Shown here one piece after another: positions 8,491 through 43,638 of a DNA stretch of 64,000 nt. The DNA comes from Octopus vulgaris (Eukaryota). The stretch's first letter is position 1; every line of letters begins with the position of its first letter. A program made the position numbers and the translations under genes. The notes under the pieces were generated by a model. It saw only the letters and a program-made list of their open reading frames with translations, ran no database searches and was not told the DNA's origin. The stretch is taken from the NCBI GenBank assembly GCA_951406725.2, contig OX597831.1, positions 47,802,001 to 47,866,000 on the forward strand, read 5' to 3'.

Positions 8491-8528
<38 letters not shown>

Positions 8529-8530
<2 letters not shown>

Positions 8531-8763
8531 AGAGTAAGCACATAAATGCAAAACAAAGTGGAAAAAATAGTGTTCGAATACCAGAGGTAGTGTAATATGC
8601 TTTATTGAAAGGCAGCAAAAATATCACAAAAATTGTTGCTCAGAGTTGCATGTTCCTGTTTGTCAGACTGTTTTGCTTAGGATCTAAACAAAAGTGCCTG
8701 ATGAACAGGAATGTGTAACACAGTAAAAGTTTTTGGGATACTTTTGCTGCTTTTTAATAAAGT
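8529..8763 (-). mobile_element. Decayed fold-back hammerhead element, same family as 42398-42618
   Basis: 8529-8610 is the reverse complement of the 42540-42618 tail; decayed arms follow, with CTGATGAacaggaatgt at 8698; flanked by (TA)n. Confidence 0.75.
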
Positions 8764-19897: not shown

Positions 19898-19971
19898 TTA
19901 GATTATTGAATATATATATTTATGCACATATATCTTCTGGGGTTGGAAGGTTTAAGCTTCTAGAAACTAGT

Positions 19972-21630
19972 AAGAACAGTAAATTCTTGCGACTAGACAT
20001 AGAAACCTATTATACCACTATTTATCTGATTCTTAATCAAGCCCTGATTTATAGCATGAAAAATTGCAATTTGTCCCAATGGGAAATAGATATTATACTT
20101 GCCACATTAGCCACTCTAGTAGATTTTGAAGATAGATTATGGAATAGATTGGATAGGGAGAATGCATTTGATATAGCAATGGGCTCATATGATTCTGCTC
20201 AGATCACAAACCTAGTCAGAATATACATCCTTTCATTAATCCAGTTTTCCTTTCCAGAAGTAACCTGGGATCTATATAGGGATGCTGCCTTATTTTTTTC
20301 TGGACAGAAGTAGAAAAGTACAGTTAGAAAGGCATAGGAAAAATTTCTCTAGACTTTTAAAAAATTTAGGACTAAACATTACTATGGGTAAAGATTTATG
20401 AATTTTCTTGATACTAGCTTCTATCTTGATACTGAATTATTTGAACCATTTCATGAGCCAAATGATCATATTAAGTACATTAACAAGGCATCCAACCATC
20501 CATTCAGGGTTTAGTTAAGAATTTCTCTACAAGAATTTCTAGATTATCTGTTAATAAAATTATCAAATCTCATGCAACTTATTATAATGCTGCTCTAGTT
20601 GGGTACCATGAAAAAAATTCAATATATACAAGAAGCAGGAATACACAACATTGGCAATTCCTCCAATTGTAATACACATTGTACACCACAATGTCAGAGT
20701 TTGAGAGCTCACTCAGATAGAGAATACAAGCCAGGAAGAATTGGTCATATCAGTGAACTACCAACAAAAACTCATGGACGCACATAATAATCCAGCTGCT
20801 TGTTCCAATCCTGTGCAACAAACTCGATCAAATAAGCCTAACAACAGATATAAGAATCAGGATGTTCTCTGGTTCAATCCAATTTTCAGTTTGCATGTTT
20901 CAACCAAGATCACTGGAAAATTTTTTGCTGCTTTGGGCAAATGTTTTCCTAAATCTAATTGGTATCATGCTATTTTTAATAAGCACACCATGAAGGTATC
21001 CTACACCAACTCTGCTAATTTAGAGCAGCTTATGCATCGCATAAACAATAGTAAAATGTGGCAAAGGTTCAATAACCCACCTACTGGACCAAGGAGATGT
21101 AAACCACAATGATAAACAATAACTACAACCAAATTGTAGTAGTAGAAATAATTATGATACAGATAACACAGTAACAACGTTGGTAAATGGAGTCAGGACT
21201 GCCTTATACACAAATAAATGCTCATGCAGAAAAAAAATCAAAATGTTGTTTGATGAATCTCTGTATTAGTACAAATCTTGTGTATAAATGTACTGTGCAC
21301 ACAAGGGTCGGGCCGTATGTTTACATAAGGCAGATGGCTGATTCATTTAAGAATCATTATTATAACCATGCTATCAGCTTTAAGACAATCAATAAGAGAC
21401 ATTCAACATCTTTGGCAGATTTTGTACGGTGACTTAAGGAGGATAAAATGAAGTACAGCGTAACTTGGCCCATAGTAAGGCTTATACAATATAAACCATA
21501 CAATATAATTTCCAGGAGATGCTGTCTCTGCTCTGAGAAATCCCTGTCTATTCTGTGGACTAACGAGAAGATCATTAGTAGAATTTCTGAACGACTCTTG
21601 AGATGCTTACATGCATATAAATGTACTTAA
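19972..21630 (+). pseudogene. Penelope-like retroelement (Naiad-like) RT + GIY-YIG endonuclease, 5'-truncated and decayed
   Basis: LDIETYY, FDIAMGSYDSAQITNLV, LYRDA (YRDD), NFLD, YINKASNHP, WFNPIFS, IFNKHTMKVSY, KCSCR..C, LVYKC..YVYI, NHAISF, CCLCSEK, CLH; several stops and frameshifts. Confidence 0.88.
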
Positions 21631-36806: not shown

Positions 36807-36826
36807 ACTGGACCTTGGTGGTTACT

Positions 36827-36948
36827 GATTACAACATCCACGTTTCCCGAGTGGCTACCTGTCTATATACTAACTAGACTCACCATTTTTTAGCTTCAGT
36901 GATTAGATAAGAACCAACCAGTGATTCCAATATGATATGGCCATAAGT
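36827..36948 (-). pseudogene. 5S rRNA-derived sequence (pseudogene or SINE3 head)
   Basis: Minus strand acttatggccatatcatattggaatcactgg..ttcttatctaatcactgaagctaa..gttagta..gggaaac..gatgttgta is colinear with metazoan 5S rRNA over about 120 nt. Confidence 0.8.
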
Positions 36949-42365: not shown

Positions 42366-42395
<30 letters not shown>

Positions 42396-42397
42396 GG

Positions 42398-42618
42398 TAA
42401 AAGCAGCAGAAAATTCAACAAAACTTGTTACTCTGAGTTTCACGTTCCCGTTCGTCGGACAGTTTTTGCAAAAACTGTCCGACGAACGGGAACGTGAAAC
42501 TCAGAGTAACAGGCTTTGTTGAATTTTCTGCTACTTTTAAATAAAGCATATTACTCTACCACTGCTATTTGAGTACTCTTTTTTCCACCTTGTTTCACAT
42601 TTATGTGTTTACTCCGGT
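42398..42618 (+). mobile_element. Well-preserved palindromic hammerhead element in (TA)n
   Basis: 142-bp spacerless palindrome 42398-42539 (centre TTTTTGCAAAAA, about 3 mismatches) plus an unpaired tail. Confidence 0.85.
42475..42512 (+). ncRNA. Minimal type I hammerhead ribozyme motif (CCGACGA core), mirror copy on - strand at 42425-42462
   Basis: CTGT CCGACGA ACG-GGAA-CGT GAAA CTCAGA GTA ACAG; stem II capped by a GNRA loop. Confidence 0.8.
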
Positions 42619-42758
42619 ATATATATAGGTAGATAGATATAGATATAGATAGATAGAAAGATAGATAAAACTTACTTGGAAGTGGATGCAGAGCGTTTGA
42701 TCATATAATAATATAAATAATATATATATATGCATACATATATATACATACTTACATC

Positions 42759-42800
<42 letters not shown>

Positions 42801-43638
42801 TATGTCGGCACAGGACGTCACGAAAAGTGTACAACAAAAAATATGAAGCATGTATACATGGAGCATGAACTATTCTTTCGAACAATGAAAGACACAAATA
42901 GAAAACAAAACAAATAACGTAAAGAACGACCCTTCATCAGTTGTTGGCTGTTTTTCTAGTCCCCTTTTTTCGAGCATTTAACAACAATGTACGCTTTTGA
43001 TAAAGCAGTTGTTTCCACAAAGCAAATTAAATAAAATTTGGGATTTTGCAGAGGGTCAAAATTAGTAACACAAACAGGACAGTGGAAACAAAGAGGAAGG
43101 GCTGCTAAGCCTAAATGAGGTTGTGGTAGCAAATGCGTAAATCAAGCTAGGACAGGAGACAAACAAGAACATGTCTTCCTTGTTCGAGCTACAATGAAGA
43201 GAAAGAAAGAAAGATGGCCAATGGTCATGTGGGAACCACGTGAGCAAGGGAGGCGGAGTGAGGGAGAGAGAGTTACAGAGTAATAGGATAGAATAGTGGG
43301 AGAAGAGGGGGTAAAAGAATAAGAGAGAGAAGAAGAGAGAAAAACAAAAGAGTAAAACGATCATATAGAGTGAACTTCAGAATTATTAAGATAAAATACG
43401 TATTTGTATGTGCGTGTGTGTGTGTAGTTCAAATTTACAGAAAACATAAGATGTAGACAGCTGTAGGAACAACAAGCAAGTGTATTAGTTTAATGCTTGG
43501 GAAGAATAGAAAAGCCTTTTATATTTCCAGCCTATGCTCTTTGACATAAAGGATTAAGAAGAAAAAAAGAAGAGAGAAAAAAATGTGTAAGGATGTGTGA
43601 GTATTTATGTGTGTGTCTGTGTATATATGTGTACATGT

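Follow-up and report, generated by a model that had tools for sequence, protein, structure and literature searches.

A 220-bp insertion of a Penelope-like element (PLE) in the genome of Octopus vulgaris is arranged head-to-head and set in a (TA)n tract. It probably arose (at a probability of roughly 0.6) from two cDNAs that were primed from both nicked target strands, started at two fixed sites of the element RNA and were joined at a GC microhomology. The insertion lies in the window, i.e., the whole stretch of 64,000 nucleotides that was analyzed (assembly GCA_951406725.2, contig OX597831.1, positions 47,802,001 to 47,866,000), and positions are given in window numbering, in which element position 78 corresponds to 42546 and position 149 to 42617. 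Insertions of this kind arise routinely from a very abundant PLE family, and the locus is itself ordinary; the family, not the locus, is the test bed for PLE inverted ends, and the importance is modest.

For EN+ PLEs, passages of PMC8557442, PMC3846280 and PMC2377424 already describe 5'-truncated copies in inverted orientation, junctions that are palindromic and a tail on one side only. Pen2a of Adineta vaga (PMC3846280) and Penelope of Drosophila virilis (PMC2377424) likewise have a head-to-head inverted 5'-truncated copy with a palindromic junction and a tail at one end, whereas the unit in the window is reduced to two pLTR ends without an ORF. For Penelope-13_HM, PMC8557442 describes a 5'-truncated inverted copy with a hammerhead on both strands. 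The origin of the inverted repeats and of the one-sided tail is called open in passages of PMC8557442 and PMC11167929. With insertions in the thousands, young parents that are still intact and two sharply defined end points, the octopus genome makes priming from two strands and fold-back of one molecule testable by counting; the family also supplies a Hydra-type protein for biochemistry. The literature covered, i.e., outside subscription papers, Repbase/Dfam and the supplements of PMC13282606, yielded no description of the octopus family or of its U4C subfamilies, the 71-bp tail and the almost exceptionless restriction to one tail, nor a twin-priming model for PLE inversions. The family may be contained in Repbase, Dfam or those supplements; the O. 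vulgaris repeat survey itself (PMC13282606) lists 31 recently active Penelope-like families, in the portion consulted without such detail.

The insertion and its parent element

The palindrome is 142 bp long and spacerless, as the earlier note had described it, with arms of 71 nt each (42398-42468 and 42469-42539) that are 96% complementary. Three pairs are mismatched (42404/42533, 42423/42514 and 42425/42512), and the innermost 43 nt of the arms (42426-42511) contain no mismatch. The computed fold of the 142-nt hairpin has an energy of -110.2 kcal/mol, compared with -29.2 ± 3.7 for 200 shuffles (z -21.7). The (TA)n reported on both sides was found as (TA)12 on the left and (TA)5 on the right. 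The unpaired tail, put at about 80 bp, is present with 79 bp beyond the paired part, but 7 bp of these are the normal end of the repeat, absent in the left arm, and are followed by the 71-bp tail proper (Table 1). Contigs from four public DNA runs reach the unique left flank, and no contig from these runs crosses the palindrome.

Table 1. Features of the insertion and its flanks, in window positions
Feature	Position	Strand	Basis
(TA)12, left part of the microsatellite target	42372..42395		sequence
Two non-element bases between (TA)12 and left arm	42396-42397		sequence
Inverted arm without tail, element positions 1-71, ending 7 bp before the short end usual in the family (position 78)	42398..42468	-	family comparison
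Left copy of the type I minimal hammerhead motif, with U4C core and a stem I shorter by one pair	42425..42462	-	published Hydra hammerheads
Head-to-head junction with its centre at 42468|42469, where the parent has a self-complementary GC dinucleotide	42463..42474		copy comparison
Tail-bearing arm, pLTR end, element positions 1-78	42469..42546	+	comparison with intact elements
Type I minimal hammerhead motif, right copy, U4C core	42475..42512	+	published Hydra hammerheads
Right copy, stem I	42475-78/42509-12	+	motif layout
Right copy, core, U4C	42479-85	+	motif layout
Right copy, stem II with GNRA loop	42486-95	+	motif layout
Right copy, second core segment	42496-99	+	motif layout
Right copy, palindromic stem III	42499-42507	+	motif layout
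Right copy, predicted cut	after 42508	+	motif layout
71-bp PLE tail; in full-length elements the 5' leader between pLTR end and ORF	42547..42617	+	copy comparison
(TA)5, right part of the microsatellite target	42618..42627		sequence

The genome of the same species (2.8 Gb, 227 contigs) was searched with the right-hand 150 bp of the insertion. The search gave 406 candidates; 40 were scored, all of them 94-100% identical to the query and 26 with an adjacent inverted match. A pattern of the hammerhead core, fixed exactly at 28 places, was matched 6,838 times genome-wide, and the reversed pattern used as control 0 times. In the 5' direction, longer copies continue for about 1.1 kb as non-coding sequence and then reach the C-terminus of an endonuclease. 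This piece had 15,515 candidates in the genome, of which 150 were scored, and 16 regions were fetched from its matches. Whole frames of 723-727 amino acids with a common start were present in 10 of the 16 regions, in units of 3.43 kb that include a 1.05-kb 3' region; in one region (L075) such units stand in tandem. The 150 bp on the right side of the insertion recur in the intact elements at 92-93% identity, as the pLTR end plus the leader before the ORF, which bears out the PLE origin proposed from the window.

The parent protein combines a reverse transcriptase (RT, with YRDD) with an endonuclease of the GIY-YIG type at the C-terminus (GVVY...YTG module) in a single ORF. In the copy L077 the protein has RWK at 37 and DKT at 113, no CCHH or Cys between GVVY and YTG, then CxxC, E at 667 and N...CxH from 682. 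Database proteins matching at E≤1e-20 number 964, the best at 58% identity and one carrying PF01541; a direct Pfam scan of the parent protein gave no match. At most loci the ends of the family run into (TA)n: a perfect TA repeat follows immediately after 52 of 106 matches to the short-end motif (40 more run into the tail) and after 38 of 48 matches to the long-end motif. By its sequence the parent is firmly assigned to the EN+ PLEs.

It likely belongs to the Hydra clade, a placement made by motifs and by visual comparison with printed Hydra proteins. The marks given for this clade in passages of PMC8557442 are RWK, DKT in place of DKG, an endonuclease without CCHH, CxxC/CxH around E and N, and (TA)n targets; examples are Hydra-2_Amil, Hydra-2_Ajap, Hydra-1_Obim and Penelope-13_HM (Craig et al. 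2021). The octopus family is alike in these features, including the C-terminus of the form CxxC-E-N-CxH. The placement is only likely because the linker motif CxCx5C is intact in just 3 of 18 distinct long frames (L076, L080 and L083; in the other frames the second Cys is F or S), and because the unit is longer than typical, 3.43 kb compared with generally <3 kb in the clade (a typical, not a strict size). The tail also differs, with 71 bp in the octopus family and 30-40 bp in the Hydra clade, and the Hydra cores listed in the source all have U4, whereas the octopus family has C4, as in the window, in 2,951 of its 6,838 core matches. Hydra-1_Obim differs from the octopus family in protein and hammerhead and is thus a separate family; three strings specific for the octopus family had no match in the portion of the PMC8557442 supplement that was searched.

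Tails, ends and junctions across the copies

Seventy-seven regions were selected for the core only and regardless of inversion; they contain the first 100 core matches in the list for one contig (C1), and the sampled loci thus have an intact core in one arm. The regions were mapped on the natural copy L077, and the arms counted reach the 3' end region at an identity of at least 73%. One region (L170) had no usable match, and some of the unpaired arms have partners below the cut-offs. The 77 loci contain 50 head-to-head pairs and 34 unpaired arms. The full 71-bp tail is carried by exactly one arm in 49 of the 50 pairs; one pair has a partial tail and none has two tails. The arms have two near-invariant 3' ends, 71 nt apart, with 60 of 134 ends at each; exact inspection placed them at positions 78 and 149. 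The 5' ends range from -2561 to +94, and 64 of 98 lie within -13 to +7, just before stem I, with a peak at -6 to -2. The +7 edge of this cluster is set at least partly by the requirement for an intact core, but the pile-up at -6 to -2 is not.

The inversion point, which the earlier note wished to see compared among copies, is variable, yet it piles up just 5' of the hammerhead, and the exact 24-mer junction of the window is found at 19 loci. Fifteen of these were fetched, each with one tail. The junction of the window occurs with three core types and was therefore formed repeatedly and not copied as a unit. The junction encountered most often is a CTAG palindrome, matched exactly 213 times. 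The junctions form a continuum, and the arms measure anything from tens of bases to more than 3 kb; at 49 junctions the BLAST ends overlap in 31 cases, abut in 4 and leave extra bases in 14. A fixed template end or stop is the more likely cause of the 5' pile-up than microhomology alone: other parts of the element are also rich in palindromic 4-mers (115 in 1,049 bp), the junctions gather at this place even in older subfamilies that lack CTAG, and unpaired arms end here as well (-6 to +6).

Of 34 pairs that could be scored, 31 have two arms of identical core type, compared with a random expectation of 29%. In 9 of 11 long pairs no other copy matches an arm better than its partner does, the exceptions being L204 and L030, the latter old and ambiguous. 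In 12 pairs the arm lacking the tail extends further 5' by more than 15 nt, in 6 the tail-bearing arm does, and 31 pairs agree within 15 nt; in L136 and L153 the tail-less arm extends about 900-1000 bp further, and in L083, measured separately, it is also the longer one (3.35 versus 1.77 kb). The 12:6 split is not significant (p 0.24) and shows only that both polarities occur.

Origin of the inverted pair

In the preferred reading the enzyme of the element would nick both strands of the (TA)n tract, and one nicked end would prime at RNA position 149 and the other at 78, by analogy with PAc (a Poseidon element of Anolis carolinensis; PMC11167929). Both cDNAs would run back through the hammerhead to a template end near -5, or to some other fixed stop that precedes stem I by about 5 nt. 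The two short cDNAs would then be joined via 2-4 complementary bases, in the window via a 2-base GC microhomology. Such a course would give one tail per insertion, and either arm could be the longer one. For PAc, extracts of PMC11167929 report that the purified protein cuts and extends both target strands, beginning at two sites inside the RNA between which the tail lies, and that hammerhead cleavage is unnecessary. The resemblance extends to the position of the tail between two fixed ends downstream of the hammerhead, and the targets of PAc are AT-rich. PAc belongs to a different clade, however, and in the octopus family the two sites, as mapped in the genome, are separated by 71 nt within the 5' leader that precedes the ORF; their use as starts, the template end and the joining are inferred. 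A target-site duplication is unreadable in (TA)n.

A wider proposal, which reads the family as an in vivo record of obligatory twin priming in PLE integration, is tentative and has somewhat less than an even chance. One strand would always take the proximal start and the other the distal one 71 nt away, in keeping with the single tail of 49 of 50 pairs, and both would run off the 5' end of the RNA just before the hammerhead; the approximately 2,950 U4C copies would mean that efficient self-cleavage is dispensable for spread.

The strongest competitor is fold-back self-priming, in which a short palindrome lets a cDNA or an antisense RNA pair with itself, and extension yields a hairpin, one arm of which the endonuclease trims to position 78. 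It is unlikely but deserves serious weight. The junction hot spots are indeed short palindromes (213 loci with CTAG, 19 with the junction of the window), and the arms of a pair have subfamily and private variants in common, although a shared source of the arms is predicted equally well by self-copying and by two cDNAs. Self-priming and resolution by the endonuclease are proposals published in passages of PMC3846280 and PMC8557442; antisense RNA as the self-primed intermediate has been proposed for Adineta PLEs. The earlier note had suggested fold-back priming during PLE reverse transcription. In its simple form, with a single target-primed cDNA, this does not agree with the longer tail-less arm in 12 of 18 asymmetric pairs and in L083; such a cDNA cannot yield a longer tail-less arm, hence two cDNAs fit better. 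What survives of the suggestion is the version with later trimming, since a two-tailed hairpin trimmed on one side at integration also gives both polarities, and central deletions at palindrome centres could create small arm asymmetries. Against fold-back in general, another copy beats the partner arm in the two exceptional long pairs named above, unpaired arms stop at the same place as paired ones, and the PAc data in the consulted part of PMC11167929 indicate internal starts on sense RNA for both strands.

Far less probable than either is a palindrome that moves as a non-autonomous unit and is copied in one piece, as a mini retrozyme or MITE-like element would be. The 19 loci with an identical junction and near-identical ends, and the 213 with another junction, might suggest such a unit, but the occurrence of one junction with three core types points to repeated origin, and neither the continuum of junctions nor arms of such different lengths fit a MITE-like element with fixed terminal inverted repeats and uniform length. 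Non-LTR retrozymes are tandem direct repeats, each with a hammerhead, whereas the locus is a single inverted pair and tandem units of the retrozyme kind are absent. An arm-specific G>A in most of the top matches had been read as the sign of a master palindrome; missing from 14 other loci chosen by their junction, with 33 exact genome matches, it was rejected as an artefact of the query.

Hammerhead motifs and neighbouring sequences

A hammerhead motif is present on each strand, as claimed from the window, although the two copies are alike in 37 of 38 nt only, the outer base of stem I being different. Of the core CUGANGA, GAAA and NUH, the motif in the window matches all but U4, which is C; intact copies, which carry the motif in the pLTR at the place it has in the window, match fully, and the intact young copies retain U4. 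Stem I has 4 bp (3 bp in the left copy) and stem II 3 bp. Minimum-energy folding of the motif alone gave no hammerhead fold (z +1.5), and Rfam at its gathering threshold gave no hammerhead match in the whole window, so that the identity of the motif needed outside support. It rests on an element-by-element correspondence of the sequence with published hammerheads of the Hydra clade, among them that of Hydra-2_Amil from coral, as printed in the source, which is identical to the window in stem I, the arms of stem III and the base at the cut site and has a different but paired stem II. Many Hydra hammerheads have, like the octopus family, opposing bases at the foot of stem II that do not pair. 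The short palindromic helix III and short helix I agree with the minimal type I PLE hammerheads of PMC4209133; stem II differs in the octopus family, with only 2-3 bp, a GNRA loop and A opposite U/G/A at its base, where the minimal PLE type has G10.1-C11.1. Family-wide (L001-L212), the subfamilies are distinguished by core positions 4 and 7, by the GNRA loop and by the nucleotide preceding GAAA (U, G or A); stem III has conserved arms around a variable centre (A, C or U).

In L165 and L177 the tail arm starts at position 41, the predicted cut site. Hammerhead cleavage was considered as the marker of this junction, but complementarity in stem I also accounts for it.

The earlier note had also envisaged a ribozyme in competition with a dsRNA hairpin. 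A functional bidirectional switch of this kind, cleavage versus dsRNA for the benefit of the host, is even more improbable than a mobile unit. The near-perfect 71-bp hairpin would form if the locus were transcribed, but in the computed ensemble of the whole palindrome forcing the hammerhead helices costs about 73 kcal/mol on either strand, and still 11 kcal/mol in a lone arm. The antisense arm is transcribed first, whichever side transcription enters. The short palindromic stem III (computed self-duplex -9.4 kcal/mol, able to dimerise) implies a dimer for cleavage, and two motifs on opposite strands allow no dimer within one RNA. According to passages of PMC4209133, minimal PLE hammerheads are inactive as monomers and have low activity as dimers; in a viroid hammerhead U4C considerably lowered activity in vitro and still permitted infectivity (PMC3088659, in extract). 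A cleavage-versus-hairpin switch is therefore unlikely on the penalty, the lack of an in-RNA dimer, the weakness of minimal hammerheads and the U4C core. The three differences between the arms, one of which shortens stem I, are as expected from drift, and the family forms such structures routinely. The hammerheads of the locus are predicted to be passengers, sequestered in the 71-bp hairpin of any read-through transcript. A role as ADAR or Dicer substrate or as a cruciform, also raised in the earlier note, is a generic possibility for any transcribed inverted repeat; many such hairpins, if transcribed, would add to the dsRNA pool of the host. Opposite-strand hammerhead pairs 100-700 bp apart were noted in Schistosoma in 2014 (PMC4209133).

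In the young subfamily a 3'-splice-site-like AG stands directly before the extended stem I (L077:1692-1701); D. virilis Penelope has an intron end at a comparable AG before stem I of the hammerhead, according to a passage of PMC4209133. Contigs from four runs guessed to be RNA map on an intact copy, and these cannot show strand, ends, level or editing. In three contigs from two runs guessed to be RNA, other sequence is joined at this AG, in a form that has no exact match in the genome; this is a weak hint.

Perfect palindromes are a known class of artefact, but an assembly or chimeric-read error is the least credible explanation of all and the locus is taken as real, in agreement with the earlier note, as the arms differ at three positions, the ends are unequal, the sample of 77 loci holds 50 pairs of like architecture at unrelated flanks, and the same window contains an older, decayed example at about 8528-8760. 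In the latter, a head-to-head insertion of the same family between (TA)n tracts, the tail arm is on the minus strand (79% identity to the young element) and the tail-less arm on the plus strand.

Other PLE families lie beside copies of the octopus family and use (TA)n targets in common with it. An RT-endonuclease frame of another family, with cysteines between the GIY-YIG halves, adjoins an octopus-family copy at L077:3-1523, and a related RT frame of another family is located downstream of the tail in L056. Within the window, degenerate RT and endonuclease fragments at 19906-21621 belong to another, related PLE family (plus strand; 29-46% identity to the L077 protein in tblastn). A high-copy repeat at 42805-43510 (minus strand) adjoins the palindrome between microsatellites and has copies in several of the fetched loci; it contains the first half of a hammerhead core at 42934-42940 and is possibly the 3' end of another PLE. 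At 36826-36948 (minus strand) a 5S rRNA-like match of 42.4 bits (threshold 38) with many broken pairs is likely a pseudogene or a 5S-derived repeat.
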